From: Candidatus Altiarchaeales archaeon
GTDB lineage: Archaea; Altiarchaeota; Altiarchaeia; IMC4; SCGC-AAA252-I15
NCBI GenBank assembly: GCA_014727915.1
Contig: WJMO01000006.1
Location: forward strand, 256,001-320,000
Length of the DNA: 64,000 bases
Direction of reading: 5' to 3'
Shown here: piece after piece, positions 4,421 through 23,245 of the stretch
Numbering within the stretch: the first letter of the stretch is position 1
How the letters are laid out: every line of letters begins with the position of its first letter
Translations under genes and position numbers: made by a program
The notes under the pieces: model-generated
What the model was told of the DNA's origin: nothing
Seen by the model: only the letters and a program-made list of their open reading frames with translations
The model's database searches: none

Positions 4421-6178
4421 TCAGGGTATGGGTGAGACGTCGCTGACGAACCCCGTTCCAACCTGCCCCTGGGAGAACAGGAAGTCGAACATCAATGGCA
4501 TTATGACCGCCGTCAAAGCCACCAGCCAGGACATTATGACGAAATCGAGGAAAGCCGCGTACTTGGTGCCGCCGTCCACCATCTTTATGGAGTACGCCGA
4601 GAAAGCCGCATGTATGACCAATACCACGAACAGCATGTCCTCCACCAGGGGTATGTTTATCTCGCCTATGGAGGGCAGCAAGCCCATCATGAGGCTTCCC
4701 ATGGACGGGGTCTGGGCTATCGACGCGAAGGACTGCTTGAATGTGTTGTCCAGTATGCCCACCATCCTGAGGGTAGCATATGCGGCGCCAGTAACGCCGA
4801 GTATCGTTCCATAGTAGACTCCCTTGACGCTGGATGCCAGCTGAAGCCGCAACTCCCTGAGAGACAGTAGTTTGATGAAGTTGTCGCTGATTATCTGGCT
4901 CGCCTCCTCCGGGTCGCCGCCGAGGTTTATCACCTGTATGAATATGCTCCCGAACTTCTCTATCATGTTGCTGCCCGTCTCCCCAGCGAAGTACATCCAG
5001 GACTGGAACTTGTCGCACCTCACCCTCAAACGAGCGTAGAGGCTCTCCACAGGGTCGTTCAAGACGCCGAACTCGTGGATCCTCAGGGGTCCGAGCGTGC
5101 CTACGAGGCTGCCGCCCCGCGCAGAGAGGGAACCACCAAGAGACCTTATGAACGCGGGGAAGGCCTGGTCTTTCTTGATGACGGCAGATTCCAGCCTGGA
5201 GCCCAACACGCCGATCCCGGCCAGCGGAGAGAGGGACAGTGCTATGAGCAACGGTGTCGGGGCGCCGAACGGGCGGAACCACAGAAGGGGGATCGCAAGG
5301 ACTATGCATAGTATGAATATGGGTATCATCACTGCCCTTATACGCCTGTACTCCGGCGCCTTGATGGGCAGATGGTGGCATATTAGGTCATGTGTTATGA
5401 AGCTGTCTATGAACACCAGAGAAAGTATGTCTATGAAGAACAATGCGACGCCGCTCAACGCTACCAGGACGTATATGCTGTAGCCCATTATCAGCGGCAG
5501 CATGAAGGATATGGCCATCATGAAGGACACCGCGATGGTCAGGGAGACGAGAGCGTCCTGTATGAGGCTCAGGGTCTGGAGGCTCTGCTTGTACTCGGTG
5601 GAGTAGTCTTCCATGACCGCGGACTGCTCCTGCTTGAGGAACAGGTCGACACGCTCCCCGAAGTCGAATGCGGCGCTCATCCTGTCCAGGAAGTTGCCCA
5701 GTATCTTCGAGGGTACGAGGGTGGAAAGCTTACGGCAGGTCCTTACCAAACCAAGGTTCCAGTAGTCTGCTAGGTAGGCGACCTTCTCCATGACCTTCGC
5801 TATCTCCCCGTACTCCACCCTCTGAGAGGAGAGCCTGAACAGCTGGCGGCGCTTAACGTGGAGGGTTGAAAGAGATCCGGTGTATGTGATGAAATAGTGT
5901 ATGTTCTCGTGTATGTTGACCTTGATTCGTTCGATGACATAGTAGGGGTAGATGAACACGGACGCGAAGCCAAGAAGCAGGATGCCAAAGGGCAGCAGGA
6001 AGAGCAAGGGGGTCAATCCCCCGAGGTCGAACATGCCTCCGTAGAAGTTAACCAGGATGAGCGTCGAGAAGAAGAGCAGCAGGGTTATGGCGAGGACCGG
6101 GGCCACCAGCTTCATGAAGAAGTCGTCTAGTGTGTTGTATCCTGCCAGCCGGGTCGCCTCTTCGAAGTCCAAATCCAT
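4421..6178 (-). CDS. flaJ: Archaellum assembly platform protein ArlJ/FlaJ
   Basis: 585-aa polytopic protein with two T2SS-F-like halves (FLDRMSAAFDFGE..FLKQEQ; SWMYFAGETGSNMIEKF..GGDPEE), directly downstream of the ArlI-type ATPase. Confidence 0.85.
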   Translation of the reverse strand: MDLDFEEATRLAGYNTLDDFFMKLVAPVLAITLLLFFSTLILVNFYGGMFDLGGLTPLLFLLPFGILLLGFASVFIYPYYVIERIKVNIHENIHYFITYTGSLSTLHVKRRQLFRLSSQRVEYGEIAKVMEKVAYLADYWNLGLVRTCRKLSTLVPSKILGNFLDRMSAAFDFGERVDLFLKQEQSAVMEDYSTEYKQSLQTLSLIQDALVSLTIAVSFMMAISFMLPLIMGYSIYVLVALSGVALFFIDILSLVFIDSFITHDLICHHLPIKAPEYRRIRAVMIPIFILCIVLAIPLLWFRPFGAPTPLLIALSLSPLAGIGVLGSRLESAVIKKDQAFPAFIRSLGGSLSARGGSLVGTLGPLRIHEFGVLNDPVESLYARLRVRCDKFQSWMYFAGETGSNMIEKFGSIFIQVINLGGDPEEASQIISDNFIKLLSLRELRLQLASSVKGVYYGTILGVTGAAYATLRMVGILDNTFKQSFASIAQTPSMGSLMMGLLPSIGEINIPLVEDMLFVVLVIHAAFSAYSIKMVDGGTKYAAFLDFVIMSWLVALTAVIMPLMFDFLFSQGQVGTGFVSDVSPIP

Positions 6179-6179
6179 T

Positions 6180-7832
6180 TTAAACCGGGAAGGGGAGGCC
6201 CTCCTTGCCCTTGTAGTAGTAGGACTTGATGATCTCCCACACGTCGAAGTAGTTGAATATTCCCTCGCTTATCATCTTGTTCAGTATGGCCGCGCGGAAC
6301 TCTAGCTCGTCGTAGATTCCGCGGACGTCCTTGTATCCGAGTAATCTGGCGATCTTTTCCTCCAGGATGTAGCTGTTGTGGTATCCGAGGAAGCCGAACT
6401 CGTCGGTTGCCGGAACCCACTCGAAGACCGTTGCCGTGCCCACCTTGCCGAGCTCGTCATAGAATTTGATCAGCTCCGTCACCGAGAGGACACGACGGAC
6501 GAACTTCCCGTGCAAGTAGACTGCCTGCTGGATCAACACCACATTGAGGTTGTCGATTGCGGATATGGGGACGTTTATGGGGTGGCCGGTCATACGCTGT
6601 ATCATCTTGTGGGGGTCTCCGGCGTGGAAGGTGCTCATCACCGGGTGGCCGGTCTGCATGGCCTGGAATGCGATGTTACCCTCCTTCTCACGGATCTCGC
6701 CGACGATGATGTAGTTGGGTCGGGACCGAAGGGCCGCCACGAGCAGGCGCATCATGTCCACATCCGTCTCCTTACCCGACTCCCTCGTTACGAGGTGCTG
6801 CCACGCAGGATGGGGCATCGTGACCTCCGGGGTGTTCTCAACGCTGTAGACCTTCGCGTCAGGTTTTATGAAAGCGCTCAACGCGTTCAATGTGGTTGTC
6901 TTACCCGACGCGGTCTCCCCGCAGATGAATATGCTCATCCCGTTCTCCAGGCACAGCCACATGTAGGCCGCCAGCTCCGCTGGGAACGTGTGCCAGTTTA
7001 CGAGCTGTGTGACGCTGATGGGGACCTTGCTGAACTTCCGGATGGTGAAGCTGCTGCCCTCGAGGCTGACCTCCCGGCCGTAGATGAAGTTCACCCTGCT
7101 GCCGTCGGGCATGATGGCGTCCACGACAGGGTAGGCTTCGCTCACCGGCCGCTCCACCCGCTCGCTGGAGTCGAACACGTACTTGTCCAGCTGGAGATCA
7201 GTGTTGAATATGATGTTCGTAGCCACCATCTCGAATATCTTGTGGATGGTGTACACCCTCGCGACGCCGATGCAGTGTATGTCCTCGATGTAGGGGTCAC
7301 GGAGCAGAGGCTCGAGTATGCCGTAACCAACCCGCTCACGTATGAGGAAGTACTTTATCTTGTCATATTCGGCCTGGGTGAGGTTTATCCTGGATCCGCC
7401 GCCCATCTGGGACTTGAGGTTCTCGAAGAATCCCTTCTTCTCATCGGCCGCCACGGGCTTGCCCCCGACGGTCACAAGCTGGTTCATGAGGTTCACGAGT
7501 ATGTCGCTAAGGTCCTCTGTTGTGTCGCTGGTGTCCATGCTGTGGGCGATCTTGATCAGCTGGTCGGATATCTTGTTGAACATCTCCGTCTCCCGGGGCG
7601 TGAGCTGCGGCTCGACGGCGATGTACTGGGTCTCGTTCTCCCCCGGCCTCCGGAGTATGTGTATGAATATAGGATCGCCGACGGGGTACATTACGTTGGG
7701 AAAATCGAGGCCTTTGAGGCTCCTGTCCAACTGGACGTAGAAGTCGGGCTTCTCAAGGCCCTTGGTCTGCAAGTACTCTTTCAGGTGGGGGTTCCTGTTC
7801 TGCGCGTCGATGAACTCCTTCTCATCAGTCAT
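6180..7832 (-). CDS. flaI: Archaellum motor ATPase ArlI/FlaI
   Basis: ArlI-typical N-terminus (RNPHLKEY, NVMYPVGDPIFIHI), DPYIEDIHCIG, Walker A GETASGKTT, LRSRPNYIIVGEIR, QAMQTGH..STFHA. Confidence 0.92.
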   Translation of the reverse strand: MTDEKEFIDAQNRNPHLKEYLQTKGLEKPDFYVQLDRSLKGLDFPNVMYPVGDPIFIHILRRPGENETQYIAVEPQLTPRETEMFNKISDQLIKIAHSMDTSDTTEDLSDILVNLMNQLVTVGGKPVAADEKKGFFENLKSQMGGGSRINLTQAEYDKIKYFLIRERVGYGILEPLLRDPYIEDIHCIGVARVYTIHKIFEMVATNIIFNTDLQLDKYVFDSSERVERPVSEAYPVVDAIMPDGSRVNFIYGREVSLEGSSFTIRKFSKVPISVTQLVNWHTFPAELAAYMWLCLENGMSIFICGETASGKTTTLNALSAFIKPDAKVYSVENTPEVTMPHPAWQHLVTRESGKETDVDMMRLLVAALRSRPNYIIVGEIREKEGNIAFQAMQTGHPVMSTFHAGDPHKMIQRMTGHPINVPISAIDNLNVVLIQQAVYLHGKFVRRVLSVTELIKFYDELGKVGTATVFEWVPATDEFGFLGYHNSYILEEKIARLLGYKDVRGIYDELEFRAAILNKMISEGIFNYFDVWEIIKSYYYKGKEGLPFPV

Positions 7833-7836
7833 TTTG

Positions 7837-8568
7837 CTATGCCAGACCTCCGATGTCGATGATCATTCCCTGCCCCGGCTCGACACGGAAGGCGATCTGC
7901 GGGACTACCTGTATCTTGCTCCTCTTGAAGCGGTTGACTTCCATGTACTTCTTCGTCTCCCCGCCAAGCTGCTTTGTGCCGAACATCAGGTAGATGTCGG
8001 ACACTGAACGCAGCAGGGTCAGCAGGCTCTTGTTCAGCTGCTCGGGGTCGACGGTGAATATGACTATCTTGCCCTTGTTCGCAATCTTCTTGAAGAACTT
8101 TATAACGTCAAAGGCCTTCTCCTGGCTTATGTTCCCCTGGACCAGGAGGAACGAAAGCGTGTCGATGATGATTATCTTGCGCTCGTAGAGCTCCTTCTGC
8201 GCCAGCAACCTGTCCAGGAAGTCGGAGCGGAGCTTGCCGCCGCCGATGAACGGGAACATTGGTATGAACAGGAGCGTCTGGTTGATGACCCACTCGTCGA
8301 CCACGTACTGGAGGGATTCCATCTGCTCCAGGAAGTCCTTGGTGGAGAGCTCGGTGCTTATGTAGGTGGCGGAGGCGCCGTTGACGAGGAAGGCGTAGAG
8401 GAGTCTCTGCACGAGAAGGCTCTTGCCCATGCCGTCCTTGCCCTCGATGAGGACCATGGAACTGTAGGGCATGGCACCACCAAGTTTGGTGTGGAGCATG
8501 TCCCTTTTGATCCTTATGCTGATGTAGTCCTCGTCCTTCTCCTCCCCTTCACTGGGTTCCTCGGCCAT
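7837..8568 (-). CDS. flaH: Archaellum KaiC-like ATPase ArlH/FlaH
   Basis: RDMLHTKLGGAMP, Walker A GKDGMGKS, YISTEL, IIIDTLS and C-terminal IAFRVEPGQG. Start placed at ATG 8568 (MAEEP) with GGAG upstream. Confidence 0.88.
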   Translation of the reverse strand: MAEEPSEGEEKDEDYISIRIKRDMLHTKLGGAMPYSSMVLIEGKDGMGKSLLVQRLLYAFLVNGASATYISTELSTKDFLEQMESLQYVVDEWVINQTLLFIPMFPFIGGGKLRSDFLDRLLAQKELYERKIIIIDTLSFLLVQGNISQEKAFDVIKFFKKIANKGKIVIFTVDPEQLNKSLLTLLRSVSDIYLMFGTKQLGGETKKYMEVNRFKRSKIQVVPQIAFRVEPGQGMIIDIGGLA

Positions 8569-8593
8569 CTCCAATACCACTATTTGAAAGTTA

Positions 8594-8962
8594 TCATATA
8601 ATATCCCCTTCAGCCCCCTCCAAAGACCCTTTATCACCCTCAGAATCTTCTTTTTCAGGGCTTTTTTGGGGTTTTTTGACCGCCAGGACCATCTCGGACA
8701 TCTTTATTATCATCTCCAGGTTCTCCTCGATTGTGGATAGCCGGTCCTGGTTCTCACGCGTAAGATCCAAGGTCTTGGACATTGTAGTGTCCAGGTCGTC
8801 GGTTTTGGACTCTAACGTGTTTATTTTGTCGTTTATCTGGCGGTTAGCCTCCTTGAACTCCCTTATCTGCTCGGCGGTTATCTCTAACCTCACGGTCTGA
8901 ACGGACTTGTTGCCCCTGAAATACCCCCCTAACCTGTTGAAAAAGGACCGTATCATGTCCAA
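8594..8962 (-). CDS. Coiled-coil protein, ArlC/FlaC-like
   Basis: KINTLESK...RENQDRLSTIEENLEMIIKMSEMV resembles the FlaC coiled coil (ieenv..lm.lYEvV). It lies directly upstream of arlH. The usual NPF motif is absent. Confidence 0.5.
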   Translation of the reverse strand: MDMIRSFFNRLGGYFRGNKSVQTVRLEITAEQIREFKEANRQINDKINTLESKTDDLDTTMSKTLDLTRENQDRLSTIEENLEMIIKMSEMVLAVKKPQKSPEKEDSEGDKGSLEGAEGDII

Positions 8963-8998
8963 TGGACACCAAAATAGAATTGGATTCTGCGTATAAAA

Positions 8999-9724
8999 TT
9001 AGGTTGTGCCGCCGCAGATCAGAGAGTAACCGCGTTCAAGCTGTGATTTGCAGTCCTCCTGTTTGATGCTGCTCCTGAACAGCATGCACTTGGAATCGTT
9101 CTTCAACGTGAAGGCAACGCATAATATGCACTTGTCCCTTATGCCCATTAAGGCTATCTCGTTGTCGGGTATCATGAGGCAGTAGTCTGAGTTGTTAACT
9201 GCTATGCCGATGGAACCATAGCACTGGTATTTCTTCTGCAATGTGCTGAGCTGGTCACAGTATGTCAGGTTGTTCTGCCCCAACGCGAGGGTCTGGAAGC
9301 ATATGTCACGGGCGTCCACGTCCTTCTTCTGCCCGCAGAACTCCGTCCGGTTGAAGGACATCGCATACCTGGCAGCCAGGAACACCAAGCCGACGAGGAG
9401 CAGGACCATGAACCTGACGAACCATTTCATGAAGTTGCTGCGCTCGAATATGTGGATCCTGTCCTTGTTCTCCTGCACCGACCTGTGATAGCCTGGGACG
9501 TGTGTGACCTCCTTGACCAGCAGATCCTTCGCCCTCTCCAAGCCCACATGGTCTATGAAAACGTTCTTTATTATGTTGTTGAGGACTATCTTCTCCTGGT
9601 GCTTGTTAAGCTTGTCCTCTTCGATGCCCATCTTCTTGACCTCGCGGTTGACCCGCTCGACACCGTCAAGCCCTCCGTAGAGCATGTAAGCCTTCTTGCG
9701 GAGGTCCTCTATCTTAGGTTTCAT
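8999..9724 (-). CDS. Single-pass membrane protein: cytoplasmic helical domain, TM, extracellular Cys repeats
   Basis: TM segment WFVRFMVLLLVGLVFLAA followed by about four C-x-C(F/Y)..A....N..YC repeats. First gene of the arl operon. Confidence 0.75.
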   Translation of the reverse strand: MKPKIEDLRKKAYMLYGGLDGVERVNREVKKMGIEEDKLNKHQEKIVLNNIIKNVFIDHVGLERAKDLLVKEVTHVPGYHRSVQENKDRIHIFERSNFMKWFVRFMVLLLVGLVFLAARYAMSFNRTEFCGQKKDVDARDICFQTLALGQNNLTYCDQLSTLQKKYQCYGSIGIAVNNSDYCLMIPDNEIALMGIRDKCILCVAFTLKNDSKCMLFRSSIKQEDCKSQLERGYSLICGGTT

Positions 9725-9749
9725 ACCAGTAGAGATATGCGAAATGTGG

Positions 9750-9758
9750 TTTATATTT
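9750..9758. promoter_or_regulatory. Putative shared TATA box of a divergent promoter
   Basis: TTTATATTT (AAATATAAA on the minus strand) centred about 30 nt from both ATG 9724 (-) and ATG 9785 (+). Confidence 0.5.
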
Positions 9759-9784
9759 CCCGGGCCTTAATCACTATTTGGAAA

Positions 9785-10222
9785 ATGAGGAGGGGGCAGG
9801 CAGCCGTGGAATGGGTAGTCATACTTTCCGTTGCGATACTGATACTTGCGGTCATGCTGTCCTTCAACGAGGAGAACTACCTTTTCTTCAGGAACAACAT
9901 GAAGGTTAGCAAGGCTAAGGCCGCTTTGAACGAGCTGAAGAACTCCGCGGATTTCGTTTACAGCCAGGGAAGCGGCGCCAAAACCAGGGTTTACGTCACC
10001 ATCCCCGTGGAGACCAACATCACCATAGAAACCCTTTCAACCGGGACAGGTCAGATACAGGCCGAGGTCCTAGTGAACGGGGAGAGGGAGTACTTTGACG
10101 TCTACACCGAGGCTAACCTGAGCGGTAGCCTGCCCGAGAAGGGCGGAAGCTACTGCGTGGACATCGAATGCCTCGGCGAGGTGGTCAGCATAACGAGGAG
10201 CAGCGGATCATGCTCAACATAG
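9785..10222 (+). CDS. Type IV pilin-like protein (class III signal peptide)
   Basis: MRRG|QAAVEWVVILSV with Q+1, E+5 and a hydrophobic helix. The real start is ATG 9785 within the 9452..10222 ORF. Confidence 0.88.
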   Translation: MRRGQAAVEWVVILSVAILILAVMLSFNEENYLFFRNNMKVSKAKAALNELKNSADFVYSQGSGAKTRVYVTIPVETNITIETLSTGTGQIQAEVLVNGEREYFDVYTEANLSGSLPEKGGSYCVDIECLGEVVSITRSSGSCST

Positions 10223-10225
10223 CTT

Positions 10226-10651
10226 ATGAACTTGAAGATGAGAGTTAGGGGGCAGGTGACTGTAGAGTACGTTGTGGTTTTCGCCATCCTGATGCTGGTT
10301 TTCGTGGTGGCCTTCCACTCCGTGAGCGTGGAGCGGAAGCACGCCTCCCAGATGCTGTGGAGCGTGGACGCCCGGGAGAACACCTGGGACCTGGCGGAAT
10401 CCATAAACGCGGCCGTCATAGGAGGTCCTGGGACCAACATGACCATAACAATGCCTGGGAAGCTAGTGGGGGGAGTGAACTACACCATAACGGTCTACCC
10501 GCGCATGGTCGCGTTGGACATACCCTCCTATAACAGGGAGTTCACGTGGAGGATACTCACCAGCAACATAAACGGGTCTGACGCTGCGCTGACCCTCCAT
10601 AAAGGGGAGGTCACAATAATGAACAAAGACGACGTCATATACTTGAGCTAA
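10226..10651 (+). CDS. Type IV pilin-like protein (class III signal peptide)
   Basis: RVRG|QVTVEYVVVFAIL; several N-x-S/T sequons. Confidence 0.88.
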   Translation: MNLKMRVRGQVTVEYVVVFAILMLVFVVAFHSVSVERKHASQMLWSVDARENTWDLAESINAAVIGGPGTNMTITMPGKLVGGVNYTITVYPRMVALDIPSYNREFTWRILTSNINGSDAALTLHKGEVTIMNKDDVIYLS

Positions 10652-10652: not shown

Positions 10653-11162
10653 ATGAAGAGGGGAGCGGCTTTCACGTTGGACATGATAATAGCGGTGTTC
10701 CTGTTCGTGGTCATACTCTTGGGCATCCTCTGGCTGTGGAGCGAGACATACAGGCAGGTCTACTACAGCGGGGACGAGAACGCCAGGTTCCGAAAGTCGG
10801 TTGACGTCTCCGACATACTCGTGAAGTCGGGTGGCACACCCGCCAACTGGTACCTGAACGAGGAGGTGACGACAGCCAACACGCATTCCATCGGACTGGC
10901 GGAGGAGGAGAACGTGCTGGACCGCGTCAGGATCGACAAGTTCAACGCATCGAACACAACAATACTGAGGACAATACTGGGACTGACGAGGGAGACGTTC
11001 GAGGTGACCATAACAGCCAACTGGACCACCACGCCGAACCTCCTGTACAATGTGAGCGACTTCAACAGCTCCTCCACCAAGGTGCACGTGGTGGAGAGGA
11101 TAGCATTGCTGGACGGGGAGAGGGTCAGGTTGAAGGTCAAGGTGGGGTACGCGAGAAGATGA
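10653..11162 (+). CDS. Minor pilin-like protein
   Basis: KRG|AAFTLDMIIAVFLF; SDILVKSGGTPANW..IGLA motif; five sequons. Confidence 0.8.
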   Translation: MKRGAAFTLDMIIAVFLFVVILLGILWLWSETYRQVYYSGDENARFRKSVDVSDILVKSGGTPANWYLNEEVTTANTHSIGLAEEENVLDRVRIDKFNASNTTILRTILGLTRETFEVTITANWTTTPNLLYNVSDFNSSSTKVHVVERIALLDGERVRLKVKVGYARR

Positions 11163-11548
11163 GGAGAGGGTTTGTTGTTTCGCTGGATGTGATGGCAGCC
11201 ACCATAATAGCGGTGGTGATGATAGTGGCGACATTGACGCTGCTCACAGAGCCCAGCAAGTACCCGGACGAGTACCTCTACAGGTATTCGGTGGACTTCC
11301 TGACTGTGGCGACTAAGGAGGGAAGCTTCTCCGACGGCATCTCGGGCAACTGGACCCCCGCGGAGGACCTGTTCGACATGGCCTCCAGCAACGTATGCTT
11401 CAACGTCACGCTGAAAGACCAGGATGAGAGCCTGGTATACAATTACACGAGGCCTTGCAGGAGCCCTGACTATGCGGTTGTTGGGAAGTACGTGGTGACG
11501 GACGGGGGCAGGAACTATCTTTCTGAGATGAGGATGTGGTACAAGTGA
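11159..11548 (+). CDS. Minor pilin-like protein
   Basis: RRG|FVVSLDVMAATIIAV; ATGA overlap with the previous gene. Confidence 0.8.
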   Translation: MRRGFVVSLDVMAATIIAVVMIVATLTLLTEPSKYPDEYLYRYSVDFLTVATKEGSFSDGISGNWTPAEDLFDMASSNVCFNVTLKDQDESLVYNYTRPCRSPDYAVVGKYVVTDGGRNYLSEMRMWYK

Positions 11549-12726
11549 GGGAGCGCGGATACCTTTTCACGGCTTTGACGTTCTTCATGCTAATATCAGT
11601 GTTCAGCCTGGCCTACTTCTACCATGGCATAAACGCGGACGGGCGGTACTTCGACGTGACGCCCATGAAGAACCGCGCCATAAACGACAACATCGGGGAG
11701 AACCTGGAGGAGACCCTCGGCCTGGACATATCAGTCAACAGAAGCGGCAACGTGACCGTGGAGTTCGAAGACTATATACCCTCATCGTATAATGTCACAT
11801 ACGCGGTCGTGAACTACAGCGACTACGTGAACACAAAATACAAGGCGTCGGTGAACTCCAACATAACATTGGACGTCACCCAGTTCAACCTCCTGTTCCC
11901 AATAGACCCCTACAGCTTCACATACGGGTGGGAGAACGACTTCAAGAGGGGGATACTAGCCTATAACACGTCATCCGACACTTCAACTTTCATAGGGTAC
12001 GACATAGTCGCAACGTTCGCCGACGACCGCATATACGATGTGATGTGGTTGGAGGGGGAGAACCTCACCGGCGGAGGGGACAACACAGCGAGCGGGAGCG
12101 CATCAGGCGGATACTACAAGAGCGGGATAGCAGAGCCGGACGTGTTGACGAGGACCGTGACCTCGCCACTGACAACCAATTACACGTTGTGGGTGAGGAG
12201 CCTGGACAACCAGTCCACCGACCACCAGTTCATAGTCGGCGTCGGCGGGGTGAACTCGTCCTCCAACTTCGGGGAGCACACCGCGGGCGGGTGGGCGTAC
12301 GGGTGGGAGATGGGAGACAACTTCACCGTGACAGCCGGGCCGTTGGACGTTAAGGTCTATGGGCTGGCTAGCAACACGGCGGCGGTGGACGTCATCATGC
12401 TCGCCTCCGACCCTGACGTTGACCCAAACGACTACGGCGGCTTCGGGAGGCCGCCTGACACTCTGGAGGCCGGGGCGGACACTGGAGACCTGGACTTCAC
12501 GTTCCACATTGAATTCGACAACCTCAAATACTCCTACGCAGGGGACCTGAACAAATCGGGGGAGAGCACGTTCAACTTCACCTTCAAAGACAACGACAGC
12601 GTCAGGTTCACCATAGGAAAGTACGTGCACGATGGTTTGAGGACCGAGTCTTACAGGGCGAGGTTGAACAACAGCAGGAGCGGCAGCAGGGGAACGGTCA
12701 AGACGATGATGAGGTTCGAAACATAG
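11536..12726 (+). CDS. Minor pilin-like protein with an inserted carbohydrate-binding-like domain
   Basis: ERG|YLFTALTFFML N-terminal helix, an internal WLEGE...VDVIML jelly-roll-like segment, and many sequons. Confidence 0.72.
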   Translation: MVQVRERGYLFTALTFFMLISVFSLAYFYHGINADGRYFDVTPMKNRAINDNIGENLEETLGLDISVNRSGNVTVEFEDYIPSSYNVTYAVVNYSDYVNTKYKASVNSNITLDVTQFNLLFPIDPYSFTYGWENDFKRGILAYNTSSDTSTFIGYDIVATFADDRIYDVMWLEGENLTGGGDNTASGSASGGYYKSGIAEPDVLTRTVTSPLTTNYTLWVRSLDNQSTDHQFIVGVGGVNSSSNFGEHTAGGWAYGWEMGDNFTVTAGPLDVKVYGLASNTAAVDVIMLASDPDVDPNDYGGFGRPPDTLEAGADTGDLDFTFHIEFDNLKYSYAGDLNKSGESTFNFTFKDNDSVRFTIGKYVHDGLRTESYRARLNNSRSGSRGTVKTMMRFET

Positions 12727-13714: not shown

Positions 13715-13777
13715 AACCCCCAAACTGTCTTGAAGGATGTTCAAATAATTTAAAATAAATCGTTCGTATATTGTTCT

Positions 13778-15944: not shown

Positions 15945-16832
15945 ATGAGAGTCTATGCCATGATACTCCCCCAGGAGGCGGGGAGGAAGCTGGGACGGCG
16001 TCTGGAGGACTTCGGAATCTTCCTCACAGAGTTCATGCCCGAGCTGAAGAGCGACATAGTCTACTCTTCCATCGACATGACCGCCGAAGAGTACATGGTA
16101 TCGTCGGTCGCGTCAGCCCTCCTCCTCGGCGCGCTGATGTTCACGTTCACATACATCCCGGTGTCGGTGTTGGAGCTCGCTCCAGGAAACGAAATGCTCT
16201 TCTCAGGGGTGCCGGCACTGGTCGTGATGGGCCTGGACTTCTTCGTCCTGTTGAGATACCCGAAGATACTATCCTTCAAACGGGCAGAACTAGTCGACAG
16301 AGACCTCGTCTACGCGTTGAAGGACCTCCTTCTGAACATAAGCGCGGGCCTGAGCCTATTCGAGAGCATAAAGAAGATATCAGACGCCGACTACGGTTTC
16401 GTCTCAAGGGACATGAAGACTGTCGTGGAGAACACCAAACAGGGCATGCCATTGGACGACGCCCTCGAAGACCTAGCGTTGAAGACATCCAGCGAGCACA
16501 TGAGAAACGCCCTATGGCAGACCATCAACGCCGTAAAAGCAGGGGCCAGCGTCAAAGACGCCCTGGCAGGCATCATAGACGCGCTTATGAGAGAGCAGAA
16601 GAGGAAGATAATGAACTACATACAGGAGCTGAACGTGCTCTCCATGATATACATGCTGTTCGCCGTGGCAGTCCCCACCATCATAACAACGGTGCTGGTC
16701 GTGCTCACGTCCCTGATGGGAACAGGAGTGGACGAGAACATATACATGTTCGTCATCGGAATATGCATACTGGTCCAGATTTTCCTAGTGGGCTTCATAA
16801 AGAGCAGGCGGCCAGTTGTGACCGTCCTCTAA
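15945..16832 (+). CDS. Type II secretion system F / TadC-like platform protein
   Basis: Two N-terminal TMs, DRDLVYALKDLLLNISAGLSL...GMPLDDALE, and C-terminal TMs; follows the ATPase. Confidence 0.88.
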   Translation: MRVYAMILPQEAGRKLGRRLEDFGIFLTEFMPELKSDIVYSSIDMTAEEYMVSSVASALLLGALMFTFTYIPVSVLELAPGNEMLFSGVPALVVMGLDFFVLLRYPKILSFKRAELVDRDLVYALKDLLLNISAGLSLFESIKKISDADYGFVSRDMKTVVENTKQGMPLDDALEDLALKTSSEHMRNALWQTINAVKAGASVKDALAGIIDALMREQKRKIMNYIQELNVLSMIYMLFAVAVPTIITTVLVVLTSLMGTGVDENIYMFVIGICILVQIFLVGFIKSRRPVVTVL

Positions 16833-17149
16833 GCCTCCGGCTTCCCGAAGAGGTTGGGGCTGCGCGGCTTCTTGTATCCCCGGTCGTGCACACGATAGGA
16901 GTCCTCGCCCAAACCCAGAATGCTTACCAGCTCGGACCTGGCGACTAGGAACCGGCTATGACCGAGGAAAGTTGATAGGTAGTTGGCAGTCAATCCCGTC
17001 ATCAGCTTCTCCTTCTCTTCGGCGGTCATGTGCTCCACGTCGGTTATGTTCATCTTCTTAAGCTCGTTGACGAGTATCAAAGCCCCAGACCTCCCAGACC
17101 ACTTTATCATGAAATCCAAAAGCTGCTTGCCTATCGCATGCGAAGCCAT
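16829..17149 (-). CDS. Small helical hypothetical protein (KaiC-associated)
   Basis: 106-aa ORF 4 nt downstream of the KaiC-like gene; similar to the N-terminus of 8999..9724. Confidence 0.7.
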   Translation of the reverse strand: MASHAIGKQLLDFMIKWSGRSGALILVNELKKMNITDVEHMTAEEKEKLMTGLTANYLSTFLGHSRFLVARSELVSILGLGEDSYRVHDRGYKKPRSPNLFGKPEA

Positions 17150-17153
17150 ATTA

Positions 17154-17861
17154 TCACTTGTACATCACCTTAAGCCCGTTGGAGGATATGTCATAGTCCA
17201 CGAAGTTCTTCACATGGTCCGACCCCCGCATCTTATGGACCTTTATCTGCCGCCCCCACTCCTCAGTCATCTTCAGCAACGTGACGGAGTCCGAGAGGAA
17301 GTCCTCCATCCCGAACCTGCTTATGTCATCAGACGCATAGCTTATCTCGGTTGTGAAAAGGGTGGTCGCGCCCATCTTCTTCAACGCCATCATGAACCTG
17401 AACAGCTCCGACCTGAATATCTGCTCGTCATGGTAGGCGATGGCAAGTGGAACGATGCTGTCCAACCCCACCCTTACGCAGTCGCTGTAGTTAATCTTTA
17501 TGAACTCGAACAGGTTGTCCAGCCTCAGGGGGCTCTCCTCGCTCTCCAGCTCGTCCTGGGTTGATATTACATTGGCCCTCAACGAGGACATGTCGCATAG
17601 TGCGAGCATCTCCTCACCGACCGAGTCCAGATCCAAGCCGATCGTCTTGCAGTCACGCTTGATCTGGGACATGGTCTCCTCAAGGGTTATGTAGACCGCC
17701 TTCTGACCGAACTTCTCCGCGCCGTTCAATAGATAGGACAGGGTGAAGAGGGTCTTGCCGGACCCGCTGCAACCCGCTATCAGGTTTATGCTCTCAGGTA
17801 TGTAGCCGCCGCCGAGCAGATTATCATAGCCTTCGATGCCTGTCTTAATCCTGTCACTCAT
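17154..17861 (-). CDS. KaiC/RAD55-family ATPase (single domain)
   Basis: RIKTGIEGYDNLLGGG, Walker A GCSGSGKT, YITLEE, LDSI, KVHKMRGSDH. Start at ATG 17861 with a GGTGA RBS. Confidence 0.9.
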   Translation of the reverse strand: MSDRIKTGIEGYDNLLGGGYIPESINLIAGCSGSGKTLFTLSYLLNGAEKFGQKAVYITLEETMSQIKRDCKTIGLDLDSVGEEMLALCDMSSLRANVISTQDELESEESPLRLDNLFEFIKINYSDCVRVGLDSIVPLAIAYHDEQIFRSELFRFMMALKKMGATTLFTTEISYASDDISRFGMEDFLSDSVTLLKMTEEWGRQIKVHKMRGSDHVKNFVDYDISSNGLKVMYK

Positions 17862-17935
17862 GAGATCACCTTTTGCCAGGTAACATATTAAGCGGCTATT
17901 ATAAAAGATGGGTAATATACATAAGATAATCGAAG

Positions 17936-18916
17936 ATGAAGGCATACTATATAGCTGCGAAATTCTTCCCGGAAGAAGTTAAGGAAGAGGTCCGGACGCT
18001 GCTACAATACTGCGGCAGCAGGATGAGCCCGGAAGTCTGGGTGGGAAGGGCGCTGCTGGTCAGCATGATGGTCTTCACCTTAGCCCTGTTCATAGTCCAC
18101 TATACGATAGAAGACTACTGGAGGGCCGTGTTACTGATGCTGTTGGCATTGACAATCTACCACATAACGACATACCTGCTGCTCTTCTACAAGGCGGAAG
18201 GCCGGGCGAGGGCGGTGGAGAGGGTACTCCCCAACTTCCTGCAGCTGGTGGCGGCGAACCTGAACTCGGGGATGACCCCCTTCCAGGCGTTCAAGGAGTC
18301 CAGCAGGATGGAATTCGGGATACTCAAAGACGAGATAGACAACACCATCGCGCTTTCCATGGGTACCATGCCATTCCACGACGCGCTGTTGGACATGCCT
18401 AAGAGGGTGAAGTCCACCATGTTCAAGAACGTCATCGAGCTGTTCGTGGAGGGGATGAAGACCGGCGGGCCGCTGGCCACCCTGCTGGCCGACATCGCCA
18501 AGGACATAAACGAGAACCTCGACCTGCGGAGGGAAATCGTGACACGCAGCAGGAGCTACATACTGTTCATATCCTTCATAGTCGTTTTCGGGTCGCCCCT
18601 GCTGACCGCGGTTTCCCTCCATTTCATACGCACAATAGACGAGGTCATCGGGGTCGTGCAGATGGAGATCCCGGAGATACAGAGCGTAGGGGGCATAAGC
18701 TTCGGCGAGCTCGTGCTCACCCCGGAGTTCCTGACCCGCGTGGGCATCGTGAACATCTCGCTCACCTCCCTGATAGCCAGCTGGCTTCTAGCGATAATCA
18801 GCCATGGGAAGGACAAGTACCTGTTCAGGTACGCTGTATTCCTCGTTCCCGCATCTATCGCGGCGTTCTTCATACTCGACTTCCTGATAAAGACGTTGTT
18901 GGGTTCACCGATATAA
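17936..18916 (+). CDS. Second type II secretion system F / TadC-like platform protein
   Basis: VERVLPNFLQLVAANLNSGMTPFQA..EFGILKDEI, GMKTGGPLATLL; TMs at both ends. Confidence 0.88.
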   Translation: MKAYYIAAKFFPEEVKEEVRTLLQYCGSRMSPEVWVGRALLVSMMVFTLALFIVHYTIEDYWRAVLLMLLALTIYHITTYLLLFYKAEGRARAVERVLPNFLQLVAANLNSGMTPFQAFKESSRMEFGILKDEIDNTIALSMGTMPFHDALLDMPKRVKSTMFKNVIELFVEGMKTGGPLATLLADIAKDINENLDLRREIVTRSRSYILFISFIVVFGSPLLTAVSLHFIRTIDEVIGVVQMEIPEIQSVGGISFGELVLTPEFLTRVGIVNISLTSLIASWLLAIISHGKDKYLFRYAVFLVPASIAAFFILDFLIKTLLGSPI

Positions 18917-18917
18917 G

Positions 18918-20036
18918 ATGAAGGTTGCACTGGTAAGCGAGTACTTTCCAATGAGCCCCGGCCGGGAGATGCGCGGGGGAGTGGAAGCCAGGACATACTT
19001 CGTGTCAAGACACCTCGCCAAACGCCATGACGTCAAAGTCTACAGCATCATGGAGGATGGGATGAGCGAGGAAAGCGAGTTCGAGGGCATGAGGGTGGCG
19101 AGGGTGAAGCCCGAAGTGTCCTATTCACAGTCGTCGTCTTTGGACAAGCGATTGATGTTCATGCGAAACGCCGCAAAGGAGATTAGGAAGGGAGGTTATG
19201 ACCTGGTGGACGGCTGCAGCGTCACAGGATACCCTCCCGCATGGTGGAGCAAGTGCAGGGGTAGGGTGATAACATACCACGACCTCTGGACAGGCAGATG
19301 GATCCAGAACATGGGTTGGAAGGGGTTGTTCGGGGAAGTGCTGGAAAGGTACGTCCTGTCAAGGAACTGGGACCACATAACGGCCGTCAGCCAGTACACC
19401 AAAGACAACCTCGTAGATTATGGGATAGACGCGGATAGGATAACCGTCGCCCACAACGGCATAGACTTGGAAGAGTACAAGAGCGTGAATTCTGAAAAAT
19501 ACGATTCGCCAACGGTCTGCGCTGTGGCCCGGATGGTGAAGTACAAGCGATTGGAAGACCTGATAAGAGCCCATTCGCTGGTGAGGGAGGAGGTAGAGGA
19601 CGCCAGGGTGAGGATAATAGGCACCGGACCCGAGAGAGAAAGGCTCGAATCATTGTCGGAATCCCTGGGAGTCTCCGACTCCGTGGAGTTCATAGGATAC
19701 GTGAGGGAGCACGCTGAAGTCCTGAAGACCATCAAGTCCTCCCATTGCCTCTGCCTGCCCAGCGCGGTGGAGGGGTTCGGCATAACCGTCGTGGAAGCCA
19801 TGGCATTGGATGTTCCTTATGTGGCGTCGGACATACCAGCGGTAAGGGAAGCCACGAGAGGCGGGGCTGGCGGATCTCTATACAAGCTGGGAGACGTTGA
19901 GGAACTGGCGGAAAAGCTGAAGGCCGCGCTAAACGGCGAGGTAAGGGGAGGGGTGAAGTTCATAGAGGAGTACGATTGGAGCAGGACGGCGGAGAAGGTG
20001 GAGGACGTCTATGAGAGAGTCGTTGAACGGAGTTGA
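18918..20036 (+). CDS. Glycosyltransferase family 4
   Basis: GGVEAR, AVSQYTK, HNGID, PSAVEGFGITVVEAMA (E-x7-E motif). Confidence 0.92.
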   Translation: MKVALVSEYFPMSPGREMRGGVEARTYFVSRHLAKRHDVKVYSIMEDGMSEESEFEGMRVARVKPEVSYSQSSSLDKRLMFMRNAAKEIRKGGYDLVDGCSVTGYPPAWWSKCRGRVITYHDLWTGRWIQNMGWKGLFGEVLERYVLSRNWDHITAVSQYTKDNLVDYGIDADRITVAHNGIDLEEYKSVNSEKYDSPTVCAVARMVKYKRLEDLIRAHSLVREEVEDARVRIIGTGPERERLESLSESLGVSDSVEFIGYVREHAEVLKTIKSSHCLCLPSAVEGFGITVVEAMALDVPYVASDIPAVREATRGGAGGSLYKLGDVEELAEKLKAALNGEVRGGVKFIEEYDWSRTAEKVEDVYERVVERS

Positions 20037-21597
20037 TAGCGGAGCCTGGATGCTAATAGCGCTTATACTTTCTTCCGCGCTCATGATACCCCAACTTGGA
20101 GACGCGTTCGGCGGATTCCACGGCATGAGCGAAGCCTACTTCACACAGCTTGGGCAGAGCCTCCTCGACAACCCGCTGAAGTATCCCACGAGGCCGGACG
20201 GGTCGGCACAGTCGGACAACATACTACTACCATACCTCCTGTACGTGAGCTTCAAGGTGTTCGGCGTGTCGGAGGCCAGCGCGCGATTTGTGGTGGTGGC
20301 GTTCACGCTCGCGGCAATCGCAGCAGTCTACCATATCTGCAAGAGGCTGTACGGTGCCAGGACGGCAGCATATGCGAGCCTCATACTGGCGGCTACTCCA
20401 ATGAATGTGCTAGTGGGTAGGAACGTCCAACCGGACACCGTATTCGTATCCCTCGGACTGTCAGCAGTCTGCCTGTTCCTCAAGGGCGGCAGACGCAACA
20501 CCATCCTGGCGGGCGCTCTCGCCTTCCTCTCCTTCCTGGCGAAGCTGCCGGGCATACTATTCACAATCGGCATAATAGCCTACGTCATATCCGAGAAGAG
20601 AAGCGACGTTCTCAACGACCCCCGGCTTAAAACTTTCCTAGTCACATCCCTCCTGATCATGATACCATACCTGGCGTACAACCTTGCCTTCCACCAGCAA
20701 GGCTTCCTGTCAGCGGTCACGTCAAGGGTGATGCTGGCAGCCTCGGAGGAGGGGAGCAACAACGGACCGGACATGATAGCCTACGAGACATTCTACGGAT
20801 TGAGCCCGCTGATAGCATTGGCATTCCTCGCCGGACTTGCATATTCCATTGCAAAGCATCGTGAAAATAACACCCTGCCCCTCATATTCTCCGCCATGTT
20901 CCTCCTGTTCTTCCTCGTCTACAACAAGCACAGCTACTACATCCTACCACTCGCGCCTTTCGCGGCGATGATAGCAGCGAATGCACTGGCGGGCATCAGG
21001 GAAAAACGTGTTGAAACCGCGCTCATGATATTGCTGGTCTTGTCCGGCGCGTTCTACAGCCTGCTGATGCTCTGCGGCAACAAGTACGGGTACAGGGAAT
21101 ACGAGAGGCTGCCGGGAATTTATGGTGAGGAGGACGCGGCCATAGCGGTGTCGGACCACATCTCCGACAACTTCATAGACCTCGTAACCTACTACAACCC
21201 CCGAGCGGAAGTGATCAGGCTGAAGAACGTAAGGGAGGGCGAGGACTGCCTTATGCCGTTGGACTACACCAGACCAACATATAACCTGCTACACCGTTCT
21301 GAACTGAGCCTGAACGCGTTGAACGAGGACATGAGAGCCCGACTGCTAGAGAGGAGCGCCGCATCCGACGTCTACGCCCTGTCATTCTTCGGCATCGTGT
21401 TCAGCGCCGAGCCAGCCAACCAGCACTTCTTCACCCACGGGAGGCTGCGGATGAACAGGGCAAAAGACGTCAGAGGAACAGGGCCGGTGAAACTCGGCGA
21501 AGCCCCCGAACTCTTCCTCGTCAAACTGAAAGAAGGAGAAAGACTCTACCGCCGCGAAGACGGAGCATACAGCATACGAGGCCGAGCAGGTTTTTAA
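20011..21597 (+). CDS. GT-C (GT39/ArnT/PMT-like) membrane glycosyltransferase
   Basis: EAYF, FKVFGVSEASAR, QPDTVF, FLAKLPG, YYILPLAPF; multiple TMs. Confidence 0.8.
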   Translation: MRESLNGVDSGAWMLIALILSSALMIPQLGDAFGGFHGMSEAYFTQLGQSLLDNPLKYPTRPDGSAQSDNILLPYLLYVSFKVFGVSEASARFVVVAFTLAAIAAVYHICKRLYGARTAAYASLILAATPMNVLVGRNVQPDTVFVSLGLSAVCLFLKGGRRNTILAGALAFLSFLAKLPGILFTIGIIAYVISEKRSDVLNDPRLKTFLVTSLLIMIPYLAYNLAFHQQGFLSAVTSRVMLAASEEGSNNGPDMIAYETFYGLSPLIALAFLAGLAYSIAKHRENNTLPLIFSAMFLLFFLVYNKHSYYILPLAPFAAMIAANALAGIREKRVETALMILLVLSGAFYSLLMLCGNKYGYREYERLPGIYGEEDAAIAVSDHISDNFIDLVTYYNPRAEVIRLKNVREGEDCLMPLDYTRPTYNLLHRSELSLNALNEDMRARLLERSAASDVYALSFFGIVFSAEPANQHFFTHGRLRMNRAKDVRGTGPVKLGEAPELFLVKLKEGERLYRREDGAYSIRGRAGF

Positions 21598-21636
21598 GGT
21601 CTCTGCGAATACTTTACCAAAAATGATATTTTTTCT

Positions 21637-22347
21637 GTGGTGATTGGATTGATTGATCGAGTTCCGAGCGGGATACCAGGCCTCGACGAACTCCTGGGAG
21701 GGGGTTTCGTCAAGCGGAGGCATATCGTCATCTGCGGGGGTCCTGGAAGCGGTAAGACGACACTTGGCTATGAGTTCCTGTACCGGGGGGCTGAAGAGTA
21801 CAATGAGAAGGGCTTGTTCGTTTCCCTTGAGCAGTCCCCGGAGAGGGTGGTGGAGGGCGCGAAGGCCCTCTTCAAGGAGTGGGACTGGGACAGCCACCTG
21901 GACAAGAACATCGTCGTGACGAGGATACAGTTGGAGGACTTCAACAACCTGAAGGACATAATAGGCAGCTATGTGAGGGAGCACGGGGTCAAGCGGGTAG
22001 TGTTGGACAGCCTCACGTTGCTGAAGCTGTACTTCAGGGGGGAGGACGCGTACAGGAACAACCTCTACGAGCTTCTGACGTTCATGGGCGACCTGGACTG
22101 CACCTCCCTGCTCACGTTGGAGAAGGAGATTAACAAGAGGAGCGAGGCCAACTACGACATGGAGGAGTTCGTGGCCGACGGGGTCATAAACATGTACCTT
22201 GTCCCCAAGGACATGGACCGGCTCAGGGTGTTGGAGATAATAAAGATGCGGGACACAGACCACAGCACCAAGCTCTGCCCGTTCAAGATAACACCCGAGG
22301 GGCTTATGATCTCGCCAAAAGCCAGGATGTTCGGCGGCATCGAGTGA
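21637..22347 (+). CDS. KaiC/RAD55-family ATPase (single domain)
   Basis: RVPSGIPGLDELLGGG, Walker A GGPGSGKT, FVSLEQ, RVVLDSLT, EFVADGVI, LEIIKMRDTDH. Confidence 0.92.
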   Translation: MVIGLIDRVPSGIPGLDELLGGGFVKRRHIVICGGPGSGKTTLGYEFLYRGAEEYNEKGLFVSLEQSPERVVEGAKALFKEWDWDSHLDKNIVVTRIQLEDFNNLKDIIGSYVREHGVKRVVLDSLTLLKLYFRGEDAYRNNLYELLTFMGDLDCTSLLTLEKEINKRSEANYDMEEFVADGVINMYLVPKDMDRLRVLEIIKMRDTDHSTKLCPFKITPEGLMISPKARMFGGIE

Positions 22348-22348
22348 T

Positions 22349-23245
22349 GTGACGATGGATCCGGGTTCTGGAGTCTACGCGTACCTTTTGAACAAGGTGA
22401 CAGGGTATTTCAGCGAGGTCAACGGCAGCCTCGCTGAGAAGGCGCTCCAGGACAGCAGGGGAATATTGGATGAAGCGAAGGTCAAGTACACCATAGACAA
22501 GGGGCTTATAACCATCACCGAATCCGAGGAGAAACACATCAATGCACTGTACGATTTCACCCTATCGGTTGCTGAGGTCTTCGAATCCAAGTACGGCGTG
22601 AACGAGGTGTGGGGTAAGCTGAAGAAGGTAATGGTCTCGGTGCTCGTGGACAACAAGACAGAAGTCAAAGAGTACTCGGTCGAGCTGCCAATAGCCAAGT
22701 ACAGGATAAGGTACATGAGACAGGACAATGTGGTCGGCTTCAGCACGGCCAAGATAATGGACAAGGACCGGTGGTTGGACGGGCAGGTGCTGGTCACAAA
22801 CCATAGGATGGTATTCCAGGAGACGAAGACCGACTATGAGGTCCCGCTCTCTGCGATAGCCACCATAGGGCGTGAGATATACCTGAAGGGGGTGAGTTCC
22901 CGGGAGCTAGGGGGCGTGATAAGGATGATAGACTTCAGGATGAAACCTGAGCTGCTCTCATGCGCCCTCTTCCTCGCCGAGAAGGAGTTCATGAGGGAGT
23001 TCATGAGGGTCGTGTCCATAGCTAGGGGAGAGTACGCGAGGTTGAACGACGTCGAGACTAGAGTGTTGCTGGCGCTATACAGGGAGGTTCCCGCCAAGGA
23101 GCTTCCCATGATATGCAACATAGGCGAGTGGGAGGCGAAAAAGTCGTTCGAGCGGATTTTGGACCTCGGGTTCGTGGACAAAGGCGGGCACCTGACTTCA
23201 TACGGGATAAACACTGCGGAAGGATACTTAAAACAGAACAGGTAA
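22349..23245 (+). CDS. CheF-like (DUF439) adaptor with an extra N-terminal helical domain
   Basis: W.DGQVLVTNHRMVF....YEVPLSAI (PH-like) and LNDVETRVLLALY..V...ELP......E....FERI.DLG.....LT..G (CheF C-terminal winged helix). Confidence 0.65.
   Translation: MTMDPGSGVYAYLLNKVTGYFSEVNGSLAEKALQDSRGILDEAKVKYTIDKGLITITESEEKHINALYDFTLSVAEVFESKYGVNEVWGKLKKVMVSVLVDNKTEVKEYSVELPIAKYRIRYMRQDNVVGFSTAKIMDKDRWLDGQVLVTNHRMVFQETKTDYEVPLSAIATIGREIYLKGVSSRELGGVIRMIDFRMKPELLSCALFLAEKEFMREFMRVVSIARGEYARLNDVETRVLLALYREVPAKELPMICNIGEWEAKKSFERILDLGFVDKGGHLTSYGINTAEGYLKQNR

Follow-up and report, generated by a model that had tools for sequence, protein, structure and literature searches.

Two adjacent genes of an archaeal surface-filament locus encode a single-domain KaiC-like ATPase (KaiC_b, 21637-22347, plus strand) and a distant relative of CheF, an adaptor of archaeal chemotaxis (CheF-like protein, 298 amino acids (aa), 22349-23245, plus strand; its copy in the database begins with the ATG at 22355). 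That these two proteins form a physical and evolutionary unit, as judged from gene neighbourhoods and a predicted complex, is the best-supported statement of the present analysis. The genes are located in a stretch of 64,000 nucleotides (the window) of a Candidatus Altiarchaeales archaeon, i.e., contig C3:256001-320000 of a 1.81-Mb assembly (G000) that comprises 13 contigs and is 90.6 % complete. The region is a conserved surface-filament supercluster, in which the core genes of an archaellum (cc122-arlH-arlI-arlJ) are combined with a type IV pilus locus of the archaeal kind and with genes for glycosyltransferases. We tentatively favour the reading that KaiC_b and the CheF-like protein constitute a signalling module of this supercluster which acts on a filament machine, the chances of this reading as a whole lying somewhat below even. 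The comparison set comprised 61 species genomes for the phylum, 49 for the order and 21 for family f1, the latter including the window's own, i.e., 20 relatives.

With a profile of the CheF-like family, 15 strongly matching genes were found in 12 of the 61 phylum genomes (two further matches at E ~9e-4, spanning 45-50 residues, were not counted). KaiC_b is located directly upstream on the same strand in 12 of these 15 cases; among the remaining three, one (a paralogue on G039:C1) lacks KaiC_b, and two have at most 200 bases upstream before the contig ends. Orthologues of KaiC_b are present in 11 of the 49 order genomes (the window's and 10 others, with 59-81 % identity compared to ~27 % between paralogues), all 11 of which also carry a CheF-like gene. 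From other lineages, the KaiC_b alignment search yielded KaiC proteins of ~24-33 % identity alone, without orthologous context.

A complex of KaiC_b with the CheF-like protein was predicted with an interaction prediction score from aligned errors (ipSAE) of 0.80 in each of three runs, and none of three controls exceeded 0.00; contact agreement between the runs was at least 97 % and the predicted local distance difference test score (pLDDT) of the partners at least 87. Of 157 solved complexes, 116 attain this ipSAE, as do 2 of 215 mismatched pairs, a calibration that is rough here due to the custom alignments used. The predicted interface involves residues 127-133, 171-180, 195, 197, 202-203, 223, 274 and 282-292 of the CheF-like protein and residues 58, 67-72, 85-116 and 133-145 of KaiC_b. 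It takes in the GREIY motif, the most conserved of the CheF-like family (R175 invariant, Y178 nearly so, E176 invariant among the closest members), as well as the family-invariant D195 and two residues invariant in KaiC_b (T95 and R96). The segment of KaiC_b between the Walker motifs is shorter than, and unlike, that of the other 14 KaiC paralogues of the genome. The pairing of the KaiC protein encoded at 21637 with the CheF-like protein, proposed in an earlier sequence-only reading of this DNA, is supported by adjacency, co-occurrence and the predicted complex.

The CheF-like protein belongs to a genuine family, as an exhaustive HMMER search among 1.84 billion cluster representatives retrieved 37 at E <=1e-3, 28 of them at E <=1e-10. 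The family alignment (n = 28) consists of the window protein and 27 of the 36 other matches, six fragments of 75-228 aa (P0012, P0020, P0024, P0027, P0029, P0036) and three weaker partial or multi-stretch matches (P0033, P0035, P0037) being left out. Residues R175, D195, E79, P114, E236 and G286 are invariant in this alignment. Among the 27 solved matches listed for the 28-member profile, the best two are CheF (7ovp_A, E 3e-5; 7od9_C, E 1.3e-4), both via the C-terminal domain, with profile positions 212-273 aligned to residues 250-308 of 7ovp_A and residues 38-90 of 7od9_C, i.e., to the C-terminal tail. MarR-type regulators come after these with E 4.5e-3 to 5.6e-3, and the winged helix-turn-helix (wHTH) family PF24409 matches the C-terminus of 19 of the 28 members (best E 4.2e-7). 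The Pfam model of CheF (PF04283) matches the middle domain of 9 of the 28 members, with a best E of 5e-5 and all scores below cut-off, and in six-frame searches all 7 sub-threshold PF04283 matches in the 61 genomes turned out to be genes of the CheF-like family.

The AlphaFold2 model of the CheF-like protein (pLDDT 94.7; predicted template modelling score 0.90) is composed of a helical N-terminal domain with a beta-hairpin (1-110), one PH-like domain (114-230) and a helical, winged-helix-like C-terminal domain (234-297). PH, PTB and GLUE domains make up the Foldseek list of this model, with CheF at rank 23; residues 114-231 superpose on residues 2-122 of CheF, the first of its two PH domains, with Z 10.6 and a root-mean-square deviation of 2.6 A over 104 residues at 18 % identity, the highest of the list. 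The CheF signals therefore lie in two separate domains, arranged in CheF's own order. On account of the C-terminal profile matches, the PF04283 matches and the PH fold, the 298-aa protein is a distant CheF relative that falls outside the CheF family proper by score, by domain count (a single PH-like domain) and by genomic context, no CheW occurring in its family of genomes. The CheF-like gene of the sequence-only reading is confirmed in this qualified sense.

For the N-terminal residues 1-112, a look-up in the ESM Atlas gave no usable match. A word-index protein search with the 298-aa sequence retrieved only the protein itself, and comparison of the single sequence with the genome contigs retrieved no relative. 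A metagenome scan with six distant family members gave three contigs of 1.3-2 kb, one of them with a divergent KaiC upstream, the other two being too short to judge or showing nothing. PADLOC assigned no defence-system family to the CheF-like protein, KaiC_a, h106 (the latter two described below) or the NurA-like proteins encoded next to the pair in genus g9; for KaiC_b it reported two weak matches of the P-loop type (24.6 and 16.8 bits).

The whole assembly contains no match to the CheW domain, and none was found in any of the 21 family genomes including the window's own. MCPsignal yielded three matches in the assembly, all of them sub-threshold (best 15.5 bits, cut-off 34.6), and the single, likewise sub-threshold match of PF04283 (17.1 bits, cut-off 25) is the CheF-like gene itself. 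In none of the 61 phylum genomes did the six-frame search detect PF04283 over cut-off. Hence, the lack of che genes, at first reported for the window, extends to the entire assembly, and the proposal of a Che-independent KaiC input is strengthened by the family- and phylum-wide results. Two receiver domains are encoded in the genome, on other contigs; a stand-alone receiver domain (98.8 bits) is found at C12:171721-176976 between a 1135-aa protein and a 497-aa membrane protein. Given these receiver domains, a CheY-like input to the tail of the CheF-like protein may exist. CheW/CheA-type genes are present in 7 of the 61 phylum genomes (families f5 and f6), six of which (genera g17, g18 and g20) are without ArlI over cut-off. 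The latter, together with the lack of a canonical CheF in the phylum, suggests Che systems whose target is something other than an archaellum.

The archaellum core is encoded on the minus strand by arlJ (platform protein, 4421-6178), arlI (motor ATPase, 6180-7832) and arlH (KaiC-like archaellum protein, 7837-8637). In the NCBIfam scan, ArlI (706 bits against NF058587, cut-off 550) and ArlH (222.8 bits against NF052589, cut-off 215) pass the equivalog cut-offs; ArlJ, with 431 bits against NF004704, stays below the cut-off of 550, is full-length (residues 18-566 on profile positions 11-552 of 555) and occupies the expected position in the order arlH-arlI-arlJ. Orthologues of arlJ (45-77 % identical) come after arlI in 8 relatives, and ArlI is found above cut-off in 11 of the 61 phylum genomes. 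The probable start of arlH is an ATG near 8568, yielding a protein of ~243 aa similar to those of the relatives (orthologues of 232-283 aa). In relative G037 (L040, G037:C136, 6887-8698), arlJ is represented by two open reading frames (ORFs) of 175 and 425 aa, which may result from a frameshift or an error of sequencing, or may mean that the gene is broken.

Upstream of arlH, in all eight arl loci of family f1 examined (the window's counted), a coiled-coil protein is encoded, which in the window has 122 aa (cc122, 8594-8962, minus strand). It consists of a FlaC-type segment alone, devoid of an ArlD/E domain and of a membrane segment. Against FlaC_arch of Pfam (PF05377), cc122 scores 18 bits (E 0.0077), which is below the cut-off of 27.8, yet a profile of seven cc122 orthologues aligns to the FlaC segment in six of the phylum's ArlCDE proteins with a hhalign probability of 97 % (E 1e-10, 42 % identity over 55 columns). 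A tblastn search of the assembly with the relatives' ArlCDE gave cc122 as the only match at E <0.5 (45 % identity over 51 aa, E 7e-8), all others having E >=0.57. Based on the hhalign match to the FlaC segment of ArlCDE, cc122 is by sequence homology a short ArlC paralogue, and the ArlC-like coiled coil of the sequence-only reading can be retained. Four archaellin genes over the PF01917 cut-off are located elsewhere in the genome, on contigs C12 (two), C4 and C11. In four relatives a second locus encodes an ArlCDE fusion protein of 525-557 aa (L049-L052; G051:C26, G040:C49, G038:C20, G034:C90), followed in three of the four by one or two ArlF/G-like genes for products of ~148 aa (by eye). This second locus lies beside glycosyltransferase-like genes (by eye) and, in G051, also contains an archaellin gene. 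The arl loci of G008 and G011, belonging to two other families, possess a canonical ArlC+D/E fusion and two PF01917 genes each, taken as ArlF/G-like, and that of G009 has Arch_fla_DE matches.

On the plus strand, divergent from the arl genes, cc122 and p241 (8999-9724, minus strand), extend the pilin and pilus genes. The product of p241 (241 aa) has a helical cytoplasmic N-terminal part, one membrane segment and a Cys-rich outer part, and matches no Pfam or NCBIfam family; in G039, the gene stays with the pilin genes, apart from arlH. The pilus locus starts with five prepilin-like genes (9785-10222, 10226-10651, 10653-11162, 11159-11548 and 11536-12726), whose order is kept in relatives. Their products have N-termini composed of a short basic stretch, G/A and a hydrophobic helix, recognised by eye (no match in Pfam). 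These genes are followed by those for a 327-aa secreted Cys-rich protein and a 125-aa protein without Pfam or NCBIfam families (12731-14155), a TadA/PilB-like type IV pilus assembly ATPase (14202-15941) and two TadC-like platform proteins (TadC1, 15945-16832; TadC2, 17936-18916). The ATPase matches T2SSE with 111.6 bits (PilB3_C with 23.8 bits, below the cut-off of 27) and has orthologues of 59-74 % identity in 6 family relatives; TadC1 and TadC2 match T2SSF with 62 and 56.7 bits, respectively. A single A24 prepilin peptidase is encoded in the genome, outside the window (C3:331367-331759). The genome thus has the ATPase and two platform proteins, all over cut-off, the peptidase and, by eye, the prepilins of an archaeal type IV pilus, and the two type IV filament engines claimed for the locus (ArlH/I/J and TadA with two TadC) are both present.

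Between tadC1 and tadC2, on the minus strand, lie the genes for KaiC_a, a second single-domain KaiC-like ATPase (17154-17945), and, downstream of it, h106, a helical protein of 106 aa (16829-17149). KaiC_a and KaiC_b score 173.6 and 192.7 bits against PF06745 (cut-off 26.6), substantiating, together with ArlH, three KaiC-superfamily ATPases in the locus, and share 27 % identity. Their ORFs of 263 and 236 aa score 118 and 92 bits, respectively, against the profile of two tandem KaiC domains (TIGR02655, ~500 aa, cut-off 546), i.e., they are single-domain proteins; the probable start of KaiC_a near 17861 yields ~235 aa. The 1.8-Mb genome encodes ~15 strong single-domain KaiC paralogues (>=141 bits); therefore ~0.16 would be expected by chance per 19 kb, compared to the two seen besides ArlH. 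Together with 6 type IV secretion-type ATPase genes, this represents a very high density of both protein types in 1.8 Mb. The gene for h106 follows KaiC_a in the window, in four family loci and in G011. In the latter (L048, G011:C10, 7051-11122), the KaiC_a-like gene and the gene for its helical partner interrupt, in opposite orientation, the succession of arlH and arlI in an arl cluster that is otherwise canonical (ArlC+D/E fusion, ArlF/G-like genes, one archaellin). KaiC_a and h106 probably belong with the known pair of KaiC and a small helical protein (PMC4858521).

The AlphaFold2 model of h106 (pLDDT 78.3) shows 4-5 helices, and the fold search gave a best Z of 6.8, representing helical-bundle background, with no DEATH-domain entry among the best 50 rows. 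Five of the six items of gene content listed in the sequence-only reading hold. The small helical domain said to be shared by two proteins, which we take to mean h106 and the N-terminus of p241, could not be established by BLASTP (E 0.2) or by profile-profile comparison (probability 24.8 %, E 7.9e-4, 47 columns). Comparison of h106 with the CheF-like protein gave E 9.6.

The neighbourhood is kept in relatives. Divergent arl and pilin genes are neighbours in 6 of the 8 ArlI-positive family genomes (the window's, G051, G034, G038, G050 and G040). In the window as well as in G051, G040, G039 and G034, the pilus block continues with GT4, PMT_2, KaiC_b and the CheF-like gene, except that GT4 is absent from G039 and PMT_2 was not found in G034. 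In the window, TadC2, GT4 (Glycos_transf_1, 122.8 bits; 18918-20036), the PMT_2-type membrane glycosyltransferase (PMT_2, 74.7 bits; 20011-21597), KaiC_b, the CheF-like protein and the triosephosphate isomerase TpiA are all encoded on the plus strand by nearly contiguous genes. G037 lacks the pilus block altogether; there, tpiA-CheF-like-KaiC_b-GT4 is the immediate neighbour of the divergent p241-cc122-arlH-arlI-arlJ. In all six family genomes possessing both ArlI and the pair, a KaiC_b-CheF-like pair is located inside a pilus or archaellum cluster. Accordingly, none of the three findings named beforehand as refuting the earlier proposal was made: a full che cluster with canonical cheF is absent, the neighbourhood is conserved and an interaction is predicted.

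Beyond gene content, homology, adjacency, co-occurrence and the predicted complex, we infer a state-dependent binding and a target of the adaptor. The CheF-like protein would dock on KaiC_b via the GREIY strand of its PH-like domain, and the nucleotide or phosphorylation state of KaiC_b would set whether the adaptor is held or released. Once released, the adaptor may act on a filament machine of the type IV class. Foremost among the candidate targets is the cytoplasmic ring of ArlC type (cc122; in relatives, ArlCDE) in an archaellum devoid of Che input. Feeding of the pair into the archaellum via this ring is an attractive idea, since the family relatives carry ArlCDE and possess neither CheW, nor a Che system, nor a canonical CheF, since arlCDE is, according to PMC13705601, usually accompanied by cheF, and since a KaiC-like protein is described to repress motility in Haloferax (PMC10983859). 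In a more far-reaching version, which we consider unlikely, KaiC would have replaced CheA/CheY as the input to a CheF-derived adaptor docking on ArlC/ArlCDE, rotation or assembly would be controlled by an ATPase- or phospho-state timer, and CheF itself might have arisen from KaiC-linked PH adaptors.

In favour of a tie to the archaellum, a CheF-like gene is present in 8 of the 11 genomes with ArlI over cut-off compared to 4 of the 50 without, an association that is overstated because kin are not independent. Several observations weigh against an action of the module on the filament machines. The four genomes of genus g9 (57-87 % complete) possess the pair and have no ArlI over cut-off, no orthologue of the pilus ATPase (best matches 45-52 % identical, none in G044) and no Arch_fla_DE; the neighbours of their pair are a NurA-like and an AMP-phosphorylase-like gene (the latter by eye). 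Because of these genomes, archaellum input cannot be the only role of the pair. In the opposite direction, G038 (92 % complete) and G050 have archaellum and pilus genes and lack both halves of the pair. In G039, the arl genes are apart from the pilus locus, arguing against a tie to the engines, and two further CheF-like copies are located elsewhere. The housekeeping-type neighbours tpiA, DUF460 and purF share the conserved gene order (the position of tpiA is kept in 5 relatives), and because these genes are covered as well, the synteny perhaps reflects shared ancestry only, i.e., it may be an inherited gene order without functional meaning. ArlCDE (Arch_fla_DE), ArlF and ArlG were not found in the 90.6 %-complete assembly, and may be lost or unassembled. 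As to the CheF-like protein, PF04283 scores of 17 bits (window protein) and 23.1 bits (best in genome searches) stay below the cut-off of 25 bits, and the Z-score for CheF is tied with those of many eukaryotic PH and PTB domains (Z 10-11.2). Moreover, in a genome with ~15 KaiC paralogues, the computational complex test may be passed as well by a protein closely related to the true partner.

In genus g9, a gene for 330-337 aa comes after the pair with overlapping stop and start codons (L033, 8982-9974, and L036, 9007-10020, both on the minus strand); a match to the nuclease domain of NurA was obtained for one of these two genes (28.4 bits, cut-off 21).

The main rival assigns a transcription-factor role to the C-terminal domain: the 298-aa protein would be a KaiC_b-gated regulator that binds DNA via its winged-helix-like domain and sets operons for surface structures or other functions, leaving the motor untouched. 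The PF24409 and MarR-type matches of this domain fit such a function, as does the survival of the pair in genomes without archaellum or this pilus, and in Haloferax the KaiC-like protein CirA is reported to lower arl transcript levels (PMC10983859). However, the best two solved matches of the domain are CheF, the tail of which binds phosphorylated CheY (CheY-P), DNA binding not being reported in the parts of PMC9126983 drawn upon here. The domain is also not basic (median net charge, n = 28: -0.5 over residues 234-298, 0 over the third helix plus wing), and its residues 274 and 282-292 belong to the predicted KaiC_b interface. We therefore regard a transcription regulator as rather improbable. 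The survival of the pair in g9, where the loci are free of filament genes within the ~6-7 kb inspected on each side, agrees equally with a second view, according to which the module represents a general KaiC signalling pair, as there would be many, and is not specifically connected with motility or pili, being placed at its location by the inherited gene order of one family. The concordant order of tpiA, DUF460 and purF in the same relatives, the ~15 KaiC paralogues of the 1.8-Mb genome and the G039:C1 paralogue, which stands alone beside a RIO-type kinase gene, are in line with this view. It is rendered doubtful by G037, where the pair is kept beside the arl genes after loss of the pilus block, by the location of a pair inside the filament clusters of all six family genomes with ArlI and the pair, and by the nearest characterised relative of the CheF-like protein being an archaellum adaptor.

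A circuit in which the KaiC proteins, together with the CheF-like protein, make the cell change over from archaellum to pilus or back, as put forward in the sequence-only reading, could be seen in the divergent arrangement of arl and pilin genes in 6 of the 8 ArlI-positive family genomes and in the regulation of archaellar motility by pilins in Haloferax, which involves a KaiC-like protein (PMC10983859). But the pair coexists with an archaellum lacking the pilus in G037 and with neither engine in the four g9 genomes, and because it persists there, engine switching can hardly be its core role. The two engines are, in addition, separated in G039, and both are present without the pair in G038 and G050. 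A two-engine switch is thus unlikely as core function, and the complete circuit appears very improbable. Among the explanations considered, the KaiC_b/CheF-like module acting on a filament machine is the one we prefer.

Control of the archaellum in archaea without Che systems and the role of the many archaeal KaiC-like ATPases are open questions. The two-protein module would make both testable, as it offers a confident model, a predicted interface of invariant residues and a genomic distribution with clear-cut presences and absences. CheF, which has stood alone as an archaeal invention until now, gains distant relatives with a different input. While the occurrence of KaiC genes in loci for pili and archaella has been described before, the new result is the two-gene module of KaiC_b and the CheF-like protein. 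We know of no solved complex of KaiC with a PH-domain partner. Literature searches, judged by titles and the openings of abstracts, turned up no account of a KaiC ATPase with a CheF-like partner; this claim may be affected by a paper of 2017 on KaiC hubs in archaea. The latter, by Makarova and colleagues in mBio, reportedly treats KaiC-like ATPases as signalling hubs and may already list a CheF-like partner family.

Downstream of the CheF-like gene by 22 bases, tpiA (23267-23971, plus strand; PF00121, 118.7 bits) follows. At the other end, convergent with arlJ, a gene on the plus strand (2150-4411) encodes a polytopic membrane protein of 753 aa with a large, soluble C-terminal domain and without Pfam or NCBIfam family; homologues adjoin arlJ in the arl loci of 6 relatives (L037, L040, L041, L042, L045, L046). 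Its layout recalls that of archaeal oligosaccharyltransferases, and a role in glycosylation is our guess. A second surface-structure cluster (31009-43299, plus strand) codes for a protein of 324 aa, in which Pfam recognises a class III signal peptide (24.8 bits, cut-off 23.7), a protein of 770 aa without family and a 3005-aa protein with seven CARDB repeats, GEVED and DUF11. Two further large ORFs (50062-55173, plus strand, 1703 aa; 44876-47302, minus strand, 808 aa) without Pfam match at E <=1e-4 are located among genes for GT2 glycosyltransferases, a DUF2079 membrane protein and asparagine synthase.

The cyanobacterial KaiC is an ATPase of the RecA type, and partners of the KaiB/SasA type read its state upon binding. 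It has two domains, in contrast to KaiC_a and KaiC_b with a single domain of ~235 aa each, and the predicted partner of KaiC_b is PH-like rather than thioredoxin-like. Archaeal KaiC proteins have been framed likewise, with an ATPase state read by a partner, the KaiB-type partner being thioredoxin-like (PMC4858521). The same survey (Makarova et al. 2016) describes KaiC (arCOG01174) paired with a protein of alpha-helical type (arCOG03758) in archaeal pilus and archaellum loci, and states that chemotaxis systems have no link to other pili. This pair is resembled by the single-domain KaiC genes in a pilus locus with two tadC and by the succession of KaiC_a and a small helical protein. It differs in that h106 gave, among its best 50 rows, no match to the DEATH-like fold of the small partner and in that a CheF-like partner is not named in the sections of PMC4858521 used here. 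CirA of Haloferax volcanii, a KaiC-like protein whose gene lies within the arl cluster in opposite orientation, is a repressor of motility and is involved in the pilin-dependent control of the latter (PMC10983859). KaiC_a is similar to CirA by gene position, and in G011 it lies between arlH and arlI, whereas the known effect of CirA is on transcript levels, with no partner protein named in the cited parts of that study. CheF has two PH-like domains and binds CheY-P with its C-terminal tail (PMC9126983). The 298-aa protein shares with CheF (PF04283; 7ovp, 7od9) the succession of a PH-like and a helical C-terminal domain as well as a gene location near archaellum genes. It differs from CheF by having one PH-like domain and a new N-terminal domain of 110 residues, by PF04283 scores that never reach the Pfam cut-off, by the lack of CheA, CheW and MCP in its family of genomes, and by its fixed gene partner, a KaiC-like ATPase which it is predicted to contact via the PH-like domain.

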